A stretch of DNA of 63,187 nucleotides, counting the filler, from Basidioascus undulatus (Eukaryota), in assembly GCA_000826855.1 (NCBI GenBank). It is 8 parts of 8 records of this genome, joined end to end, with 100 filler letters (N's around TTAATTAATTAA, not from the genome) between each part and the next. Parts side by side here need not be neighbours in the genome. Positions count along the whole stretch, not along the records: positions 31,679 to 39,487 come from JTLS01001488.1; 7 more parts are not named here. One strand, given 5' to 3'. Below are positions 7,825-55,394 of the stretch, one piece after another. Every line of letters begins with the position of its first letter. The first letter of the stretch is position 1. Position numbers and translations under genes: made by a program. Under the pieces are notes generated by a model. It saw nothing but the letters and a program-made list of their open reading frames with translations. It made no database searches and had not been told where the DNA came from.

Positions 7825-7924
7825 NNNNNNNNNNNNNNNNNNNNNNNNNNNNNNNNNNNNNNNNNNNNTTAATTAATTAANNNNNNNNNNNNNNNNNNNN
7901 NNNNNNNNNNNNNNNNNNNNNNNN
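7825..7924. other. Artificial contig-joining linker (N44-TTAATTAATTAA-N44)
   Basis: An identical 100-bp spacer with stops in all six frames occurs 7 times in the window. Confidence 0.99.
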
Positions 7925-15745: not shown

Positions 15746-15845
15746 NNNNNNNNNNNNNNNNNNNNNNNNNNNNNNNNNNNNNNNNNNNNTTAATTAATTA
15801 ANNNNNNNNNNNNNNNNNNNNNNNNNNNNNNNNNNNNNNNNNNNN
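15746..15845. other. Artificial contig-joining linker
   Basis: N44-TTAATTAATTAA-N44. Confidence 0.99.
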
Positions 15846-16705: not shown

Positions 16706-19008
16706 TCATAGTATAAATAAAATTTTGGTGACGTTTACTTTCTTCCACACATTCAATAGGCTCGGTGAACCCACTTGGCATGGAGATGTGAGTTCTGTCC
16801 AGAGGACCTCCCGCCGTGGCAGTCCGATCTGCACACGCTCCAGCTGTGGATTACGAGCCACCGGGTCCTTCACGTCCTTGCGCATGTTTTTGCGCTCGTG
16901 CGTCTTCTCAGCACAGACGACGGAGAGGTGCTTGACCGTCGGTCGAAGCCACTTCAGAAGCGGAACCATCCAAGTGACGACGGTGAGCGAGGCGAGGTTC
17001 GGCGTGCCGAGCGGTCTTTCGCGCCATAAACTTTTCAAGAAGGCCTGCATAGGGTTGATTACGTGGGGCGGTTTGTATCGAGGGCGAGGAACTCATCCCG
17101 CCCTCACGGTGAGGCAAAGGCGTCGAATGTGCTGAAGCGAAGCTGGAGCGCGGACAAGGGCTGTCATAGTGGATGGGACAAACAGCCGAGAGACCCTCTC
17201 GGAGAGAACCTCTCGAAACGTGACCTGCTCCGAAATGTCGATCTCCTCGTACAGCCGCGGTGCAGTGGAGTCGAGGATACCTCTCGCTCTGCCTCCATGC
17301 GCTCCCGCAAAGAAGTGCTCGATGTTCTTGCACGAAGCGTCGTAAGACGCCCCTGCCATGGCGGTGACCAGTTGCTCCAGAGCAGTGCACCAGGGATCCC
17401 CACTCTTGACTACTATCCCCACCGACGGAGAGATGACTGAAATAATAGCGGCTACCGCGTTCCCGTCCGTATCCGATGTATAAGTTACTTCCTGTCGGAT
17501 GCTCCTCATGTAGTTGTGCACCGTGGCTACAAGCTCGACGAAGAACGCTCCCACGACGCGCGGTCCTGTGCGAGACCCAGGCGCCGCGCTGGCGCCTCCA
17601 ATGCTGAGCGCTTGTTCGGCTGGCCACCTCGAGAGAGAGAGCGAGAAAGAGAGCAACTGCATCGCTTCAGTGAGGTTACGCATCTGCTGCTCCATCTGGG
17701 ACATGGCAGCCACTATTCTGCCCATCATGTCACCTTGTGCAGCTGAGGTACGCGTGAGGCTCTGGAGGTATTATTGGTAACCTTGGAGTTACGAACCAGC
17801 CGAGAGAGGAGCATGTGAGTAGTAGCTGATCTGGAGACTGTACCCACCAGCTTGCTTATGAACTCATCTTCACCGCCCGGCTCGTCCTCGACGTCCCCGT
17901 GGACTCGCATACCCTCCAGTTCATCCGCTAGTTGTTCCATGATGCAGGTGGCACCGCAGCAGTAACCTGCCTGTGCTCACTCCTCTCATGACTACCTCTG
18001 GAAGTCGACGTCTCACTAGTTACTCGTTCAGCCATGAGAGGAGAGCGCAGCTCGCCACCGGAGGTCTACTGCGGGATCCACAACCAGAGGACCCCGACCT
18101 GGTCCATCGCCAAAGTCCCCTCTCTACTCTCGACCCAACCTCGGAGTACTACCTCAACACCACAGCCCGCGCGTTAGGGGTGATCGGCGAGGGCCAGGGG
18201 TCGGTTTCGCCCGACTGAAGGTGCGTGTGGACACTCGGCAACTGGGTGTATCCCTCAGGTCTCGCTGTCGCCTGTTCTATGATGCAGCCTTTAGTAATCT
18301 CTGCTAGAGTAAAGATGTAAGGGAAGACACATTCGCTACGCGCAATAGGTGACGAGTTTGTGAGGGCGGGCGCCCAGCCAAGTTCCGTGACTGTGCGAGA
18401 GTATAGGAATTCCTCCCAGGTCCAGGGCAGGCTGTCACTAGCAGCTTAACCAAGCGGCTGTGGACCGTGGGCTGACAACACGCCACCCGAGTGACACTGT
18501 AATGTTCCTCAACATAGGGGGCTCTAAGCTTACCATCTGGCTCCTGTACGAGGGGTATGGCCCCGTCCTCTGCTACCTTGGAATCGACAGCCTCAAGATC
18601 CTCGCGCGTTACCTGCCGCAGGACATACGTTTGATACCCAGTTGGCTAGCAAGAGGGGCTGGCACCTCGTCAGATCCGGCCAATCAGCGTGTGATGCGGA
18701 TTACAGCTACCTCGGGGTGTCGCCGATTGGGAACCTCCAGTTCAATGGCAAGTCCTCAGGGATGACGGGGCTGTACTCTGCCCTCGCATCTGCGATACGG
18801 GCTGCCCTCTCAAGCCAGGGGAGCGGAGCATTCGTGGGAAGCCTGCGAGTTTTAGATATTGACAGAGATAACGAAGCACCTCATCCACAAGCTCCGGGCA
18901 TCGGTCCCAGATGGTCGGGCCGTATGATACACGCCCTCCCTGCCCGCACTCAAACCACGGCTTAAGGTCGCGCCAGGTCCAGAAGTAGGCGGATCGCGTG
19001 GTGGCCAT
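16706..19008 (-). pseudogene. Host F-box-like gene interrupted by the virus-like insertion
   Basis: The 5' part MATTRSAYFW...IWDRCPELVDEVLRYL (19008 to ~18865) resembles F-box helix 1. The 3' part TAPRLYEEIDI...LQHIRRLCL...TPNLASLTV...VKHLSV resumes below ~17265. Confidence 0.5.
17265..18864. mobile_element. Virus/plasmid-like insertion, copy 1 (divergent intronless ORFs X and Y, both disrupted)
   Basis: Homologous to 31973-33550. ORF X starts at 17940 (minus) and ORF Y at ~17988 (plus). It has stops and frameshifts that the other copy lacks. Identity of the source is unknown. Confidence 0.7.
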
Positions 19009-23664: not shown

Positions 23665-23764
23665 NNNNNNNNNNNNNNNNNNNNNNNNNNNNNNNNNNNN
23701 NNNNNNNNTTAATTAATTAANNNNNNNNNNNNNNNNNNNNNNNNNNNNNNNNNNNNNNNNNNNN
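23665..23764. other. Artificial contig-joining linker
   Basis: N44-TTAATTAATTAA-N44. Confidence 0.99.
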
Positions 23765-30951: not shown

Positions 30952-31215
30952 TCTGTCTGTCCGTCACTTCAAGAAGCACAAGGTCGTGCGGAAGATAGTT
31001 TAGAGTGATGATCGCCGTCGTTCAGCCTCGATGCTGGGCAGCGACACGCTGTCGCGGAACAGACGCGACTCACGTGTCCATCCGCGGATGCCCAGGCCCC
31101 GCACGCGGACCGGTCCTAATGAACGCCCGGGAGCCGGCGGAAGCATCGAGTTCGCAGTGCTTCAACTTGGTTCCCGACCATCACCACCCTCCCACACACG
31201 CATAGCAACACGATA

Positions 31216-31578
31216 ATGTCGACGACAGGCTCAGCGCTCGACGTGGAGCACCAGCTCGTGTTCTATGCGTCTTACCACTCCAACCCGACCAACGTGAGGA
31301 TCCACCAGGTCTTTGTCCCGCTCATCCTCTGGTCCGTTCACCTTCCTTCCAGCTTCCATTCCGAGTGGGCACACTGACAAATCGAACCAAAACCCCAGGT
31401 CATGGCAAGGCGTGCTCTCCCTCCTCCCGCCCATAGCCTCCACGCAGCTCCCCCTCGGGCTCCAGCTCGACTGGGCTCTCCTCTGGTCGATCGCCTACCA
31501 AGTCTACTACTTCCTCCTCGCACCCCTCCTCGCCACGCGCATCCCCTACGCCATCCACGTCCGCACCTATTCCAAGCC
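31216..31578 (+). CDS. MPO1: Mpo1-like (DUF962) ER membrane dioxygenase, 3'-truncated
   Basis: LDVEHQLVFYASYHSNPTNVRIHQVFVPLILW is the family N-terminal His motif, followed by the TM segment AYQVYYFLL. Confidence 0.8.
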
Positions 31579-31678
31579 NNNNNNNNNNNNNNNNNNNNNN
31601 NNNNNNNNNNNNNNNNNNNNNNTTAATTAATTAANNNNNNNNNNNNNNNNNNNNNNNNNNNNNNNNNNNNNNNNNNNN
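31579..31678. other. Artificial contig-joining linker
   Basis: N44-TTAATTAATTAA-N44. Confidence 0.99.
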
Positions 31679-34220
31679 CTCACCAATAGTGGCCGCGTGG
31701 AGGAAGATAGGGACACTCAGTAAGGTGCTGGCAACTCATGGCCAGTGGATCGAGACGAGTGCCCAGCTCGGCACCGACACCGGCTTCTTGCAATCGCTCG
31801 GTATCGACGCGGCCCCTTGGTCCTCAGACACACCTCTCCTCGCCCGGGACCTGGACTGGCCCGCGGAGGAGATTTTGATGAACGACACTCCACTGACGGC
31901 ACACAGCGGAGGGGTATCATACACGCACATGGGGGTATTGATGAAGCTGCAGTCCTTGAGGGACGGGTCAAGTGTCGATGTCTAAAACGCGGAAACTTCC
32001 CACGAACGCCCCACTTCCCTGGCTTGAGAGTGCAGCCCGTATCGCAGACGCGAGGGCGGAGTATAGCCCCGTCATCCCCGAAGGCTTGCCATTGAACTGA
32101 AGATTCCCGATCGGCGACACCCCGAGGTAGCTATAATCTGCGTCACCCGCCGATTGGCCAGATCTGACGAGGTGCCAGCCGCTCTTGCTAGCTGACTGTG
32201 TATCAAACGTGTACCCCGCGGGTAGGTAATGCGCGAGGATCTTAAGGCTGTCGCTATCCCTCGGGTCTCGCTGCCGCCTGTTCTATGATACAGCCTTTGG
32301 TAAGCTCTGCTACAGTAAAGATGCAGGGAAAGACGCACTCGTTACTTACTATACGCGACGAATTCGTAAGGGCGGGTGCTCAGCCAAGTTCCGTCACGGT
32401 GCGAGAGTACAGGAATTCCTCCCAAGTCCAGGGTAGACTATCACTAGCAGCCTATCACGCAGCTGTGGATCGCGGGCTGACGACGCGCCACTCGAATGAC
32501 ACGGTAATGTTCCTCAACATAGGAGGCTCTAAGCTCACCTGGCTCCTATACGAGGGGTACGACCCCGTCCTCTGCTACCTTGGTATCTTAGTTACCGAGT
32601 GTCCACACGCACCTCCAGTCGGACGAGACAGCCCCCAAGCCCTCAGCTATTACCCCTAACGCGCGGGCTATGGTGTTGAGATAGGGCTTTGAGGTGGGGT
32701 CGAGAGTAGAGAGGGGACTTTGACAATGGACCAAGTCGGGGTCCTCCGGTTGTGGACCTCGTAGTAGACCTCCGGTAGCGAGCTGCGCTCTCCTCTCATG
32801 GCTAAATGAGTAACTAGTGAGACGTCGGCCTCCAGAGGTAGTCATGGGAGGAGTGAGCACAGGCAGCTTACTGCTGCGATGCCACCTGCGTCATGGAACA
32901 ACTAGCGGATGAACTTGAGAGTATGCGAGTCCCTGACGAGCCGGGCAGTGTGGACGAGTCCATAAACAAGCTAGTGGGTACAGTCTCCAGATCGGCCACT
33001 ACTCACATGCTCCTCACCCGGCTGGTCCGTAACTCCGAGGTTATCAATCAGCACCTCCAGAACCTCATCGTACCTCAGCCGCACAAGATGACATGATGGG
33101 CAGAATGGTGGCTGCCATGTCCCGGATGGAGCAGCAGATGCATGACCTCACTGAAGCCATGCAGTCGCTCTCCTCCTCGCTGACTCTCTCGAGGTCGCCG
33201 GCCGAACAAGCGCCTAGCATTGGAGGCGCCAGTGCGCGCCTGTGTCTCGCACCGGACCCCGCGTCGTGGGAGCGTTCTTCGTCGAGCTTGTGGCCATAGT
33301 GCGCAACTATATGAGGAGCATCGGACAGGAGGTAAGTTATACATCGGATACAGACGAGAACGCAGTGGCAGCCATCATTCAGTCATCTCTTCATCGGTAG
33401 GGATAGCGAGAGCGGGGACCCTGGTGCACTGCACTAGGGCAGCTCGTCACTGCCATGGCGGGGGCGTCCTGCGATGCTTCGTGCAAGAACATCGAGCACT
33501 TTTTTGCGGGAGCGCATGGGGGCAGAGCGAGGGGTATCCTTGACTCCATGCACTGCTCTCTCGTGAAGTGCAAGGCGACGCTGAAACCCGAGTTCGGCGA
33601 CATCATTGCAGCGCTCGAGTCCCCGTGCGCAGAGGGTGAAGCGCCCAAGCCCAGGTTAGTCCCCAGGGCCCACCAGCACACTGCCCACGAGCTCGCGGTG
33701 TCGAAGCTGAAGCAGAACGACAAGAAAGCAGTCGCCAAGTCCCTCCTCTCGGGGTCGTCCCTAACGCAGGCCCTCGCTGCGGTCAACGAGCAGCCCATCA
33801 AAAAGCAGGCCAAGGTGAAGGATGAACGGATTTTAAATACCGGCCCTTAGATCCGTTCCTTGGAGATCCGTTCCCTAATAAATCCGGCGAGTGCGCTCTC
33901 GGTACTGGCATCGGTGAGGTACCCGATAGGGTTCTCCTCGGGCACGCCCTGCTTGTAGAGGGCCAGCATCTTGTCAGCCGCAGACCCCTTGGCGGTAGCG
34001 GAATTGTTGATGGCATAATCGACGCTCTTGAGAAGGTTAGCGGGGTCGCCCTGATGTATGGCAGGTGTCTCCTCTATGGCATCCCTCAGCACCTTGAGAC
34101 TGGGCATGTCGGACTCCTCTATGAGGCCTAGGCCCTGGCAGGCGGCGCGGCAATTCTGGTTTACCTTCCAGATGGTTAACCTCTTTATATTCTGGCTGAT
34201 GCGAAAGTCCTGCATCTTTC
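31679..34220. mobile_element. Virus/plasmid-like element, copy 2: ORF W(+, to 31985), ORF Y(-, 32845-31968, internally inverted), ORF X(+, 32893-33850, frameshifted), ORF Z(-, 34215-33847)
   Basis: Intronless ORFs on alternating strands with overlapping stop ends and a 47-nt divergent spacer. The central 1.6 kb is homologous to 17265-18864. The element runs off the contig start. No transposase, RT or terminal repeat is visible. Confidence 0.7.
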
Positions 34221-34325
34221 TACTTGCTGGCTAGTGCAAATTACCCTTTCAATCACGAATACATTGTAACGAATAAACACCATCGTCACCTCCCGATGTT
34301 CTGGCAACCGGCGCCAGTGAAAAGC

Positions 34326-34878
34326 TCAAAGTTGGATGGGCTGGAGGGACGCTCAACGTCAGCCAGCCGCTATCTCCCTGCGGTCCTTAGTCGAGTGCGT
34401 TACTTACAGAGCAGCCCAGGTTAATAAGTCCGTTCTGCGTCACATTCTCGCAGCAGACGGGGGCGTTGTTGCAAGTGCCTCCGAGCGCACCGCCAATGAC
34501 CGGCACCTTAGTCAAGACGGACATTATCAGCCTGACAGCCTAGAATGTTAAACCAATTGGCGGCTTTAGCTTACCTGAATGCAGTTCAGGCCGACCTGGC
34601 CAAGGATGCTGCCAACGTTAAGACCGAGGAGGCCGTCGAGGCCGCCGAATACATCGCCGGCGGAGTTGACCGTGTTGCTGGGGGGGGGAAAGTAAGGATG
34701 TCGACAATGAGGCCCAGTCCTATTCAAAGAAGGCAAACTTCTCGCACCAGCAAGAAACCTCCTCGGTGTTGCAACGGCCACCGTCGGCGCGCTTGAGGAA
34801 GTTGTTGGGCTCGGGAGTGGCGGAGACGGTCGCGGCGGCGGCGGCAACGGCAAGGACGGAGAAGACAGCGGTGCGCAT
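34326..34878 (-). CDS. Class I hydrophobin (hydrophobin A)
   Basis: Signal peptide and KR site, then an 8-Cys pattern after splicing: RCNTEEVSCC...[43 protein letters not shown]. Confidence 0.92.
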
Positions 34879-34989
34879 TATGGAAGAAGTGGGTATTGGG
34901 AGACGGGCGCAAGGAAGTATCAGTTGCGTGGAGTGGGAGTGAAGAACAAGTGAGGTGGTGATGGGGAATGATCTGCGCTGCCTGTGGGC

Positions 34990-35001
34990 GGGGGTTTTAT
35001 G
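34990..35001 (-). promoter_or_regulatory. TATA-like box of hydrophobin A (CATAAAACCCCC)
   Basis: Starts 123 nt upstream of the ATG and matches the box of hydrophobin B at 11 of 12 positions. Confidence 0.55.
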
Positions 35002-36287
35002 CACTTCGCAGCGCCGCTCAGAAGTCGCTCCGCCGGCAGTCTCGAGGTGGCCTGAGCCTTAGAATGGAAATGGCGGGTTGTTACAAAATCATAGCCACAG
35101 TAATCATGGAGTAGACCATGTGCGCCTTCGAAAGTCTCGTCCAACTCGTCGATCTCTCCAAGCGTCGATCCACTGCGTTGACTTTCAAGCTTGTCAGCGA
35201 AGTGCGAATGGCGGTACAGCCTCTTTAGCCACTGATGTTCGAGCATACAGGGGTGTTTTACTTTTATTGCGGAGTGGCCCGGTGAAGATCGGCAGAGGAT
35301 GGTAGGAATGCTCTAAGAGGTGGCAAGACGCGATTGAAGTGCAGTCTAGCGAGCACCTAGTCACTCCTCGTTTGGCTCTCACTTCATTTCTCAATTAGGG
35401 TGCCTTTCCGATGCTGTCTATCTTGACTAGCAAGCCGATCATTTCAACGTAAATCTGGATGAAGGCGCACCTTTGTGGACGTTCAGTCTGCCGCTTGTGC
35501 TGGACGGGTCAGCCACCGGCCGCTCCGCTGCTCCGTTGCACTGAACGTGCCGACCCTGCAGGTAATCCCCAGCCATGAAAGGCCACACTCATAAATATGC
35601 GTCCAGGGACTTAGTTTTGCTGAAAGCTCAGAGTAAAAGAAACCTCCGAACTTCTTCTTAGACCGCGTTGGAAGACAGTGGTCACGAATGAAAGCAGGCT
35701 CTCGATAAACCCACTCCTGCGATCCCAATTACCCAAGCTTTGGCCGGCCGCAACTGTGTGCGGAATGAAGGTCTTCTTAGAATTATTACAACCAAGTCCG
35801 CCATTCATGGTCCGCGCTGCAGCCTTCTACGACATCGGGAGTACAAGTCCTGCACATGCGCTCTCGCAAACTTATTGTAGCCTGACGGGACCTAGAGCAT
35901 GAAGGACTTTCAGAGTTTGAGAATCTCAGTTCAAAGCAGATGGCAAACGGCCCACAGCGTTGAAGTCGCTTTTCATCAATGTTCGATAAGCTGCCCCCCC
36001 TCGTAGATCAATAGGTGGCTCAGGTTCCTGAAAAGATGTTTCTAAAATATGCTTATGCCTCAAATCCGGAATCGCATTCTTTGCATATAGAGGCATACAG
36101 CAGCGCAGGTGGCCGTGGTGCTACGCTAGAAGTGGAGCAGACACGCTCGTCTCGCCTCCCCAAGCTATCCTTCGTCTCCATGCTCCATCTCTACTGAGGA
36201 AGCCCACGACTCTTGATCATGAAATCAGTCTTTGTAATCTCTGCACGGCGCCACAGACAAGTTCTGGGGGTGGAGCGGTACCAGGCC

Positions 36288-36299
36288 TATAAAACCCCC
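36288..36299 (+). promoter_or_regulatory. TATA box of hydrophobin B (TATAAAACCCCC)
   Basis: Starts 123 nt upstream of the ATG at 36411. Confidence 0.6.
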
Positions 36300-36410
36300 T
36301 CTACATGTCCAGTTCGAACTCCCCACCAACACGCATCCAACGTCTTCCCAGCCCCCCCCGCCTTGCTCTCCGCTCCAGATCCCACCTAACCCACCTTCCC
36401 TATTCTCAAC

Positions 36411-37018
36411 ATGCGGTCCGCCTCTTTCGCCCTCCTCGCCGTCGCCGTCGCCGCCACTGTCTCCGCCCACCCCAGCTCGGGCAACATCCTCAAGCGCCAG
36501 GACGGCGGGTCTTGCAACACTGACAAGGTTGCGTGCTGGTCAGTTTAGATCCCGTCCATGGGGAAAGCCAGTTAATGTATTGAACTAAGATTTCCTTTCC
36601 AGCAACACTCTCAACGACGCCCCCACTGCGAGCGGGGTGAGGTTCCTTCTCCCATGCCTCTCGTGTAGCCTTGAATCTGACGAGCCTCGTGCATTTGACG
36701 CTCACAGCTTCTCGGCGGCCTTCTTAACGTCGGAAGTGTCGCAGGCCAGGTCGGGTTCAGCTGCGACCAGGTACAGTAACTTGTGTATCTTTTGTTGATG
36801 CAGCACATTGTGCTGACGGACCGACGAATCTCACAGGTGCCCGTAATCGCCGGCGCGGTTTCCGGCCAGTGCGACAGCGCCCCCGTGTGTTGCGACAACG
36901 TCTACCAGGACGGCCTGCTCGGTGTTGGATGCTCGGTGAGTGACTCCCCGATTTACTCCTGACCGAAGATCGTGTGGGGCTGATGGTTTGTCGACGCAAG
37001 CCCGTCCAAATCGCTTAA
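36411..37018 (+). CDS. Class I hydrophobin (hydrophobin B)
   Basis: Signal peptide, then SCNTDKVACC...GFSCDQVPVIAGAVSGQCDSAPVCCDNVYQDGLLGVGCSPVQIA*. It has 8 Cys and shares intron positions with hydrophobin A. Confidence 0.92.
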
Positions 37019-38952
37019 GCACTGGGCTCGCAACCGGCGTCCAGCGCCTTGGGATAATATATTCGGGAAATGTAGGGATGTTTAAGTGAATTGTAACTCT
37101 TGTAGGAACGTATAGCATGGACACAATGCTGCTGGAAAGAGATTTCCTCGGGACAGCTTTGCTGTCATGATCCCCTTGCAATGGTAACTAGAGGAGTAGC
37201 TAATGGTACTTTGGGATAGATATATTTACCGATTATTGGGGCTTCAAACTTCGTTCATGTTTACGATTTCCGTTGGGCAAATGGGAATGCGCCGCTCCTT
37301 ATGAGACTTCGGGCGACATTCGCTTCAGGCCGAGTAGACTGTTGATCTGAATGATCCCATTACCAGAACTTTCTAGAATCTTGGAATGAGGAACAGAACC
37401 AACAGGATGCAGTGGCTTCATGGCTCCCGCGACCTCCTGTGTGAGCTATTGCTAGCAGTGCGCTCTGTCACTTGCTCGCTCACCGCCTTGAGCCCTTGCT
37501 CGTCAGTCCCTCTTCGCGAATCGAGCATGGCTCCAGGTGAGAGTGGCTTGGTTTTGAGACTTAATATTCAGGTGATCAAAGCAGGACTCCTCGAGCATTG
37601 GCCTTACAAGGCTTTGTGAAATTTTTCCTTTGACCTGCGAGATGTGGCGGTGGCCAGCCTATAAGTATTCTCAGTTCAAACACAAAACACTTCGCAAGCG
37701 TCCTGATATTGCTGACTTGCTTACATGCATACAAGGGAGAAAGACGACGGCCCCCGCCCATCGTGCTGTTCACTGCTGTTGTCGTTGTTCGACGGAGGAG
37801 TTTCGACAAGTTTCAGGTGGACGTCGAAGGTATCGAAAGTTCGTCTAATTTGCTCACGCCGCTGACGAGGCGGCCCTCTCTAGCCCTCTCCGACAGTTCC
37901 TGTCGCCCGCGTAAGACCTCTCTGTCTGTACGCAAAAAATGCTAGTAGAGTTGTATGCACTGCAAAGAGAATGCTTCTCTTATTTGTCTCTGTATATCGC
38001 AGAAGAAAATTTTCACGAGAGCTGGTTTAAATTCGGAGGTGGAATGGCGACGAATCCGTACCGACGTTGTGGATTTCACTGCAAAGCGCGACGTCATTTC
38101 GCACCCCCGCGTGCGCGGCTCGTGGCGTCCCGTTGGAGCGCAGAGCTGCTTTTCCGTTGGCGGTGAGCTCCTGGACCGACAAAGGAACGAGGCGCATGAA
38201 GACTCGATAAGTCGAGAGTGAGCGTCGCAATGGGTACGAAAGGACGCGAAGACGGGCGTCGTCGAGCAGAATCAGTGAAAAATGGACTGCATGTGTGCGA
38301 TCAGAAAGGCTAAAAAAGTGGAGGGGCTAGTAATAGTGCCGGAAGGGCATGACGTTGCGACGCGATTGGCCGTGCAGCGTCGGTCACAGTCGCTCGCTCG
38401 CTGCAAAGCCCTGCTCGCTGTCCCCCGACCCGCCCTTGTTCCTTGTATTGGCTGCTCACCACCACCATCGCTCCCCACGCCACCCGCGCCGACGCCCCAT
38501 TCGCCCCTGACGCGCAGTTGGGCTCTTTACGCAACCACCGGCCACAGGCGAGACCCCCAATCTAGAGGTGAGATGGGAGTTTTTTGCTGCGAGAGCGACT
38601 CTGCGATGGCGTTTGTCGCGTGCTTCGCCCGAGGGTCGGCCTTGTATGGAGGGCGTCCCACTGAGGGTGGGCAATTGGCTCGATGCGCGGGCGCTGCCGA
38701 TGTGTAATGCGTATGTGGTGAAGGTGGGCGAGTGAGGTCGCTTGTGACGGTCGTAGGCGCACTCGAGAGCAGCCGGCCCAGGGGCGAGAAGGCGGCGATG
38801 CTGATGCCCCCAACCCAGACGCCTTACAGTGATCGGTTGCCCCCTCCACCGGCAACTTGCGCATCCTACCCATCTCTCTTTACTGACCCCCGCATACTCT
38901 ACTCTCATCAACGCACCATCAACGCCTTCGTCGCACACAGGCGGGCGCAGCG

Positions 38953-39487
38953 ATGGACTTCAGCTTGGCGCCCTCGCGCTCGTCCTCGACCGCCGCCACC
39001 ACCGGGTCCGTGAACCAGCTTACCGACAACCCATCGACCTCCAGCACCGCCTCACCCTCCGAGTCCGACCTCTTCGCCGCCGCGCTCAAGCAGCGCTTCG
39101 GGGAAGGCGCGACGCCCGCCGCGATCGGCACCAGCCGTCGTCCGAGCTTTGGCGAGACCGCCGGCGAGGGCTACTTTGGCTTGCCCACCGCGTCGACGTC
39201 GGCGCCGGGACAGGTGCCACAAACGCCGGGCGCGAGGGGCTTGGGGGCAGGCAGCACGGGCTTGACGCCTGCGTTGGGAGCGCTCGGAAGGCGGAGGAGC
39301 TCAGCCGCCCCATCTCTCGCCCAGATCCCTCCGACCCCGGGCGTGGGCACCGATGGTGCCCCCAACCCTTTCAATCTCTCGCTCTCCTCCGCCTCTACCT
39401 TGGTCCCGACGCTTCCACTCACGCGTTCCGATCGGCCAGCCGCCCCATCTCCCTTCTCTCCCGTACACACCCTCTCCGCCCCACCTC
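38953..39487 (+). CDS. 5' part of an unidentified Ser/Pro/Thr-rich protein, truncated by contig end
   Basis: Open frame with host-like codon usage from ATG 38953 to the contig end. No domain is recognised and the true start may lie upstream. Confidence 0.5.
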
Positions 39488-39587
39488 NNNNNNNNNNNNN
39501 NNNNNNNNNNNNNNNNNNNNNNNNNNNNNNNTTAATTAATTAANNNNNNNNNNNNNNNNNNNNNNNNNNNNNNNNNNNNNNNNNNNN
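39488..39587. other. Artificial contig-joining linker
   Basis: N44-TTAATTAATTAA-N44. Confidence 0.99.
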
Positions 39588-47391: not shown

Positions 47392-47491
47392 NNNNNNNNN
47401 NNNNNNNNNNNNNNNNNNNNNNNNNNNNNNNNNNNTTAATTAATTAANNNNNNNNNNNNNNNNNNNNNNNNNNNNNNNNNNNNNNNNNNNN
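47392..47491. other. Artificial contig-joining linker
   Basis: N44-TTAATTAATTAA-N44. Confidence 0.99.
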
Positions 47492-55294: not shown

Positions 55295-55394
55295 NNNNNN
55301 NNNNNNNNNNNNNNNNNNNNNNNNNNNNNNNNNNNNNNTTAATTAATTAANNNNNNNNNNNNNNNNNNNNNNNNNNNNNNNNNNNNNNNNNNNN
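55295..55394. other. Artificial contig-joining linker
   Basis: N44-TTAATTAATTAA-N44. Confidence 0.99.

Follow-up and report, generated by a model that had tools for sequence, protein, structure and literature searches.

PIF/Harbinger-type DNA transposons carry several intronless open reading frames (ORFs), possibly on opposite strands, and typically comprise few active and many truncated copies. Nuclear plasmids of the yeast 2-micron and Dictyostelium Ddp types are multi-copy molecules of ~5–6 kb with about four ORFs on alternating strands, and the small DNA plasmids of the Rhizoctonia solani pRS64 type (~2.7 kb) have orphan ORFs, transcripts and chromosomal homologues. Here we describe an element of the fungus Basidioascus undulatus (assembly GCA_000826855.1) that invites comparison with all three. 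It was examined within a 63,187-nucleotide (nt) stretch of DNA, here called the window, and lies in record JTLS01001488.1 (window positions 31,679 to 39,487). Positions 31679–34122 hold a chromosomal copy, now dead, of a compact and probably selfish DNA element of at least 4.6 kb. The element bears no fewer than five ORFs without introns, arranged on alternating strands: W (rightward), Y* (leftward), X1/X2 (rightward) and Z (leftward).

Compared by general description rather than by sequence, the element resembles PIF/Harbinger transposons in being dispersed multi-copy DNA of a few kb with intronless ORFs and dead truncated copies. It differs in having at least five ORFs rather than two and in showing no DDE or Myb-like domain over the 2.4 kb that can be read; neither terminal inverted repeats nor target-site duplications can be seen, the true ends lying outside the window. 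The same kind of comparison finds the 2-micron and Ddp plasmids similar in size, alternating ORFs, proteins without relatives outside the group and multi-copy state, but here the visible part has no tyrosine-recombinase match and no long inverted repeat, chromosomal fragments exist, and the host is a basidiomycete. With pRS64-type plasmids, also compared by description, the element shares a basidiomycete host, orphan ORFs, transcripts and chromosomal homologues, although those plasmids are smaller. Other classes match less well. LTR (long terminal repeat) retrotransposons of the Ty3/Gypsy and Ty1/Copia types would be expected to show a gag or pol domain, found in 0 of 37 ORFs (visible 2.4 kb only), and the visible ORFs contain no HUH Rep, SF3 helicase or capsid family of a CRESS-DNA virus or genomovirus. 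Nor do they contain a polymerase domain, whereas a linear mitochondrial plasmid would encode a protein-primed DNA polymerase B and an RNA polymerase, and the region is not A+T-rich (G+C 0.55–0.60 over 31001–35000). Pleurotus Helitrons are reported to carry captured, highly expressed genes (PMC4289320) and are likewise multi-copy fungal elements with expressed ORFs of unknown function. In contrast to Helitrons, the element shows no Rep/helicase in its visible part, strong purifying selection on all ORFs tested and tight packing; the sites where Helitron ends (5'-TC ... CTRR-3', hairpin) would be sought lie outside the window.

Copies were sought within the window and in three public sequencing runs, termed run X1, run X2 and run X3 as distinct from the genes ORF X1 and ORF X2; V denotes the abundant version of the element in these runs, and Y* the ancestral form of gene Y. 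Runs X1 and X2 comprise ~35 Mb of contigs each, and run X3, from the same sample as run X1, comprises 16 Mb. Run X3 is listed as 'DNA?', yet it combines spliced hydrophobin contigs and 16 Mb of contigs with very uneven depth. Because its contigs of the hydrophobin gene adjoining the element are without introns, we read it as RNA: judged by these contigs, the run behaves as a transcriptome.

BLAST of the element against the window revealed a second, partial copy on the other strand (copy 2, 17257..18864, minus strand), which corresponds to 31973–33556 at ~86% identity and aligns as three blocks: block A (31973–32253, 243/281 identities), block B (32255–32587, 286/337) and block C (32590–33556, 854/988). 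Block B is inverted between the copies and has its ancestral orientation in copy 2. There, a single Y* frame runs from the ATG through segments C', B and A, damaged by two stops and two 1-nt frameshifts; here, all three Y* pieces are open, with B facing the opposite way. Ancestral Y* is thus a 292-codon ORF without introns, from 32845 to 31968. ORF X2 is uninterrupted in copy 2 from 17728 to 17257, as far as homology reaches. Contigs identical to the copy at 31679–34122 (hereafter, this copy) bridge the inversion, at the right breakpoint in run X1 (record 3) and run X2 (record 10) and at the left in run X3 (record 19), while the other orientation, recognised by 'opposite strands' joints (32210–32275 / 32580–32595), occurs in at least six further contigs and in V. 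The inversion of B is real, and private to this copy among the copies seen, and the changes at its junctions are small (+1 nt on one side, 5 to 2 nt on the other). Copy 2 ends short of both the W/Y and the X/Z junction and is uninformative on them. In its flanks (18865–18965 and 17093–17256), the Y* and ORF X2 frames stay open for 33 and 54 more codons, respectively, in unrelated sequence, which may reflect chance or a mosaic variant of the element.

The public runs place these two copies in a larger family. Contigs falling on 31679–35200 at ≥80% likeness number 89 in run X1 and 85 in run X2. In run X3, one contig of 4589 nt (record 17, depth 317.8), ~87% like this copy, follows it from 34122 to 32590, then from 32255 to 32580, then from 32228 to 31687, and continues for 1981 nt past 34122 and 159 nt past 31687. 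V carries W, Y* (with B as in copy 2), X1/X2 and Z in one piece. Because this single contig spans both the W/Y and X/Z junctions in the same order, the order W-Y-X-Z and both junctions are native, as an earlier reading of the locus from its sequence alone (hereafter, the sequence-only reading) had supposed against the alternative of random scrambling. The 30-letter loose ends of V keep the frames open, by eye, for 10 more codons of Z and 9 more of W. At the left loose end, 2 of the 30 letters differ between runs X2 and X3, both synonymously in the W frame, and two contigs of run X2 agree there only at 0.95; because these ends vary between and within runs, V comprises several copies that differ slightly from one another, as would those of a young repeat family.

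Run X2 bears on the nature of V. Contigs with V-specific changes have depths of 406–474 in this run, compared with 36–41 for contigs of unique flank (~10–12x), although contig depth cannot separate free molecules from chromosomal repeats; V is split there into contigs of 484–880 nt, with variants. Because no spliced hydrophobin joints occur in run X2, cDNA carry-over is unlikely and V-type sequence in that run is DNA. V-specific differences and indels have depth 0 in run X1, though run X3, from the same sample, has V at depth 318. This discrepancy, if real, would favour extrachromosomal V; it was not counted, as contigs show presence and not absence and some records are removed by a filter. 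The element is multi-copy, with an abundant transcribed form, V.

Within this copy, W (31680..31985, plus strand) is represented by its last 101 codons and a TAA, its start lying beyond the contig end; the frame is open from the first base past the artificial N linker (31680) to the TAA at 31983–31985. Its tail overlaps that of the minus-strand Y ORF, whose stop is the TGA at 31968–31970, by 18 nt. Relative to V, which spans W in one piece, W has a compensated −1/+1 indel pair at 31799/31805, and in another copy it carries an in-frame 54-nt skip (31761 to 31816). Y is present as segment A (31968..32253, minus strand; the C-terminal 94 codons and TGA of Y*), segment B (32255..32587, plus strand; 333 bp with the middle 111 codons, inverted in this copy only) and segment C' (32590..32845, minus strand; the N-terminal 85 codons, ATG 32845–32843). 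A 47-nt spacer (32846..32892) separates the divergent ATGs of Y* (32845, minus strand) and ORF X1 (32893, plus strand). At 32891, other copies including V have C and this copy has T; C removes a TGA just upstream of the Y* ATG on the minus strand, and the Y* start may lie further upstream in V. ORF X1 (32893..33096, plus strand) has 67 codons, and its TGA (33094–33096) overlaps the ATG of ORF X2 (33093–33095) as an ATGA that is kept in both window copies. Its indel alleles at 32932–32934 are all in frame (0, +12 and +15 nt, V having +15 nt). ORF X2 (33093..33850, plus strand; ~252 codons, with an N-terminus predicted to form a long helix) is broken in this copy, where its frame shifts by 1 nt at 33235 and meets TAG at 33398–33400 and again at 33404–33406. 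Its own stop, TAG 33848–33850, interlocks with that of Z, TAA 33849–33847 on the minus strand. Z itself (33847..34122, minus strand) retains its last 91 codons and TAA, its larger N-terminal part being missing from this copy, and shows a compensated −1/+1 indel pair relative to V at 34063/34067.

The right limit of the element is set by the point at which this copy parts from V, 34122, a codon boundary of Z. Because this copy leaves V there, the first 36 codons of the Z frame (34123..34230, minus strand) are flank, a chance extension of the frame to an ATG outside the element. Summed depth in run X2 drops to 37.8 from the 34157 bin on, where copy-exact contigs (records 14–16) have depths of 36.5–40.7. 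This copy can no longer act: it is cut on the left and truncated at 34122, has part of Y* inverted, and carries a frameshift and two stops in ORF X2. The sequence-only reading had described wall-to-wall intronless coding sequence on alternating strands. The packed intronless ORFs hold, as do the coordinates of the 18-nt W/Y overlap, the 47-nt head-to-head gap and the interlocked X/Z stops; what falls away is Y as one open frame, given that its middle third (32255–32587) is inverted and reads on the plus strand; X as a single ORF, which is two ORFs joined by ATGA and is broken here; and Z as far as its ATG, its first 36 codons lying beyond the element.

Two observations concern the transcription and copy number of this copy. 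A run X3 contig identical to it (depth 9.3) omits 67 nt with CT..AC ends within segment B (32283–32349, minus strand); therefore, the dead copy is transcribed from the minus strand and cryptically spliced. At 31679–31796, summed contig depth in run X1 is 619 compared with 226–386 in the next bins (~2.5x), and the assembly breaks exactly there; copies of the left end of W may outnumber those of the remainder.

The differences between the two window copies carry a coding signal beyond chance. They concentrate in one codon phase in segment A (31/37, P = 4e-10), segment B (35/47, P = 1e-8), 32590–32829 (18/30, P = 0.0025) and 33310–33549 (21/30, P = 4e-5), with no phase bias in 32830–33309 (18/51, P = 0.43). 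An antisense frame that shares third positions looks equally conserved, so the strand was chosen as that of the frame open in both copies. Over 33391–33850, this is the plus frame; copy 2 interrupts the minus 'shadow' frame with a stop. A minus-strand-only reading, in which Z and a minus ORF at 33391–33846 share a frame split by one TAA, was rejected: the minus ORF shares third positions with ORF X2 and has a stop in copy 2, where X2 is uninterrupted. By the Nei–Gojobori method, Y* (279 codons) has 78 synonymous (Sd) and 28 nonsynonymous (Nd) differences, giving a synonymous rate (dS) of 0.51, a nonsynonymous rate (dN) of 0.046 and dN/dS of 0.09 (P = 2.5e-25); segment A alone has five amino acid differences in 79 codons compared (dN/dS 0.045), and segment C' has dN/dS of 0.165. 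Values of 0.15 for ORF X2 (137 codons, P = 8e-9) and 0.30 for ORF X1 (50 codons, P = 0.026) complete the set, and Y*, X1 and X2 are under purifying selection. Indels between this copy and V occur as compensated pairs (W, Z) or as multiples of three (ORF X1; W, in another copy); because they are compensated or in frame, W and Z also behave as coding sequence, though beyond the reach of copy 2. Among the 25 differences listed in 32849–33243, phase 1 holds one, which does not simply fit the ORF X1 frame; as 40 of 594 were shown, nothing is concluded from this.

Codon usage sets the element apart from its host. Host exons (675 codons, Pfam-matched) have A at position 3 in 6% of codons, G+C at position 3 (GC3) of 81% and four occurrences of CTA+ATA+GTA+AGA+TTA, whereas the corresponding values for the ORFs of the element (676 codons) are 14%, 69% and 37. 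The excess of A-ending codons over host genes that had been noted from the sequence is thereby borne out, as is the interruption of host genes by introns. In run X3, contigs of the adjoining hydrophobin (depth of the region ~8300) omit 67, 68 and 70 nt with CT..AC ends, which places three introns within ~400 nt and marks the host as intron-rich.

Searches for relatives returned nothing usable. In Pfam, 0 of 37 ORFs of at least 40 amino acids in 31679–34230 (the visible 2.4 kb) reached threshold, and no transposase, reverse transcriptase, integrase, Rep, helicase, polymerase, RNA-dependent RNA polymerase (RdRp), capsid, recombinase or partition ATPase was found among the visible ORFs. A word-indexed search of 5.8 billion protein clusters gave 0 matches each for the X ORF of copy 2 (near lengths), the C-terminal piece of Y* and the Z piece (longer lengths), and exhaustive HMMER comparison of Y* segment B with 1.84 billion representatives gave 0 matches. 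W was searched in Pfam, PDB sequences, IMG/VR and the ESM Atlas rather than in the two large protein libraries. Against PDB sequences, it matched artificial six-fold RecA concatemers (E = 7e-7), a summed artefact of six stretches of 0.5–5 bits each; Z and the ORF X2 C-terminus matched nothing there. IMG/VR, queried with Y*-A, Z, ORF X2 and W, yielded one row (L004) on a 72.6-kb viral contig, seeded by the search pattern itself and then aligning low-complexity residues at 26% identity, which we attribute to chance. Three weak rows came from a scan of JGI metagenomes: L001 was rejected as off-frame in a contig with ordinary cellular-looking long ORFs, and L002 and L003 are matches of 37 and 25 residues. 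No match to Rfam, including its ribozymes, was found in 31679–34400 at E ≤ 1, and the best ESM Atlas scores for ORF X2 and W (0.88 and 0.83) gave no lead, recognition being below the guide value.

Structure prediction was equally uninformative. The AlphaFold2 model of ORF X2 (157 amino acids) is all-helical with a helix at 2–33 (low confidence) and, at a predicted local distance difference test score (pLDDT) of 51.9, too poor to use; for this low-confidence model, Foldseek retrieved no PDB structure at E ≤ 0.001. That of Y*-A (94 amino acids, pLDDT 48.4) is too poor to judge a fold. The coiled-coil-like segment that the sequence-only reading had seen in X fits the long N-terminal helix, at a pLDDT of 52 only. 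No direct or inverted repeat was found within 31679–34122, and no true element end lies in the window; nor is there a direct repeat in the contig (31679–39487), where the copy lacks both of its ends. The idea that X might be a decayed gag of a retrotransposon, preceded by a long LTR, was rejected, as the 'LTR' is the strongly selected Y* ORF and no gag match was found. In all, no ORF was found to have a relative in Pfam, the two big protein libraries (W excepted), PDB sequences, IMG/VR or JGI metagenomes. Two earlier statements, that no host or transposon family is recognisable and that the fragment contains no hallmark gene, accord with the searches run and with the Pfam results for the visible part.

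What kind of element V represents is best judged by weighing these results together. Our tentative reading, the likeliest of the explanations considered, is of a transposon-like element that belongs to no recognised class, V being a young subfamily of it. Propagation would occur by transposition, and the mobilising enzyme would be the long ORF whose last 91 codons form Z, almost wholly missing from this copy; W, Y*, X1 and X2 would be accessory proteins, selected because the element needs them to propagate. The fragmentary copies end at differing internal points (31973, 33556 and 34122), by analogy resembling old transposon remnants, and to our knowledge unclassified dispersed repeats in fungal genomes are nearly all transposons. 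Some 2 kb of V, with almost the whole of Z among them, lie outside the window and could provide room for the enzyme. Several points weigh against a transposon, however: the 37 ORFs of at least 40 amino acids show no domain of a transposase, a reverse transcriptase, an integrase or a Rep protein; neither terminal repeats nor a target-site duplication can be made out, as no true end falls within the window; the ~2 kb fits a DDE transposase or recombinase, not a full retrotransposon pol; and alternating ORFs, close divergent starts, overlapping stops and ATGA, while common in viruses and plasmids, are unusual for a transposon of ~5 kb. A serious rival, though less likely, is that V is an extrachromosomal DNA replicon of the fungus: a plasmid of the nucleus or cytoplasm, or else a DNA virus of small size. 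The chromosomal copies would be pieces of it integrated by end joining, in the manner of organelle DNA, and then decayed. Put in full, and with the same reserve, V would be a living G+C-rich ambisense replicon of ~5 kb or little more, with at least five genes without known relatives, and the loci its integrated fossils. The compact ambisense layout (18-nt overlap, interlocked stops, 47-nt gap, ATGA in both copies), the intronless ORFs in an intron-rich host and their codon usage unlike that of the host all favour it, as does the ~10–12x greater depth of V contigs over unique flank in DNA run X2, where cDNA carry-over is unlikely. So do chromosomal copies that are internal fragments with differing ends, an inversion with small junction changes as from end joining, mostly synonymous differences, as if separately evolving replicon lineages had been sampled, and a lack of relatives in any library searched. 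Packing, stops, ATGA, codon usage, fragment ends and inversion fit a replicon better than a transposon. Nonetheless, no Rep, polymerase, capsid, recombinase or partition ATPase is visible, neither a circular junction nor a hairpin or terminal repeat came to light, and the 484–880-nt contigs of V in run X2, with their variants, fit many chromosomal copies at least as well; the prior is also low, as we know of no G+C-rich DNA plasmid or DNA virus of this size in Agaricomycetes. The sequence-only reading had proposed a fossil of a DNA virus or plasmid. The dead copy and the native unit stand, but it is no lone fossil: it is one decayed member of a multi-copy family with a living form, and of the two live readings 'virus or plasmid' is not the one in the lead.

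Two further explanations place the sequence in the host or in the RNA world. An ordinary host multigene cluster, such as a subtelomeric or segmentally duplicated family that is not selfish, would account for ORFs that are transcribed and under purifying selection, and for copies that adjoin ordinary host genes (the hydrophobin at 34387–34539 and other host domains in the window). We consider it improbable, since intronless ORFs of 292 and ~252 codons stand against three introns in ~400 nt of hydrophobin, codon usage is unlike that of host exons, the copies are fragments ending inside ORFs, and no homologue from other genomes was found in the libraries searched. More improbable still is that the copies are endogenised cDNA of an ambisense RNA virus, possibly ambivirus-like, with the 4589-nt contig of run X3 as the RNA genome. 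Ambiviruses have two ambisense ORFs, of which ORF-A encodes an RdRp; each polarity carries a self-cleaving ribozyme, and there is no DNA counterpart (PMC10162972). The ~4.6-kb RNA contig from a basidiomycete, coding on both strands, is a likeness, and its length is about that of an ambivirus genome (PMC10162972; PMC7724248). Here, however, at least five ORFs rather than two have a coding signal, the visible part contains no RdRp domain, Rfam gives no match in 31679–34400 at E ≤ 1, and the element exists as DNA copies, two in the window as well as those in run X2, a DNA run in which V-type sequence is deep without sign of cDNA. Circular RNAs of the ambivirus type replicate without a DNA counterpart, as stated in PMC10162972, which counts against this explanation, and many DNA copies at 85–87% identity would be unusual for a non-retroviral RNA virus. 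The transposon-like reading keeps its tentative lead, with the replicon as its live competitor.

The setting of the element is otherwise ordinary. The window consists of eight contigs of ~7.8 kb, chained by seven artificial linkers of the form N44-TTAATTAATTAA-N44, with joins ~7.9 kb apart (7825–7924, 15746–15845, 23665–23764, 31579–31678, 39488–39587, 47392–47491 and 55295–55394); because the contigs are artificially chained, features that seem to cross a join are artefacts. The join at 31579..31678 (no strand; N44 + TTAATTAATTAA + N44) cuts the element copy: the fifth contig starts at 31679, and this assembly break sets the left edge of the copy. To the right, the element is adjoined by the hydrophobin (Pfam PF01185, E = 2e-9; domain match 34387–34539, gene window 34387–34877, minus strand). 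An inverted match to it (71–73%) at 36428–36773, 1.6–2.1 kb off, is probably a paralogue in the opposite orientation. Long ORFs elsewhere in the window encode ordinary eukaryotic domains (phosphoesterase, transketolase C, longin, MOZ/SAS, sphingolipid desaturase, WW and adaptin), and none has a transposase or reverse-transcriptase domain.

Which of the two live readings holds can be settled, because the full element is already in public reads. A transposon, if true, would found a family whose five-gene ambisense layout is odd and in which no enzyme is yet recognisable, and would help repeat annotation of fungal genomes, where such sequence sits under 'unknown'. An episome, if true, would rank among the rare DNA plasmids of the eukaryotic nucleus or cytoplasm, or be a DNA virus of fungi, and in either case would have left fossils in host chromosomes, offering a possible vector backbone and a way into studying replicon integration; such a replicon would be without precedent in Agaricomycetes and would found a new family. 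On either account, the element of B. undulatus may represent an undescribed kind of transposon, plasmid or virus.

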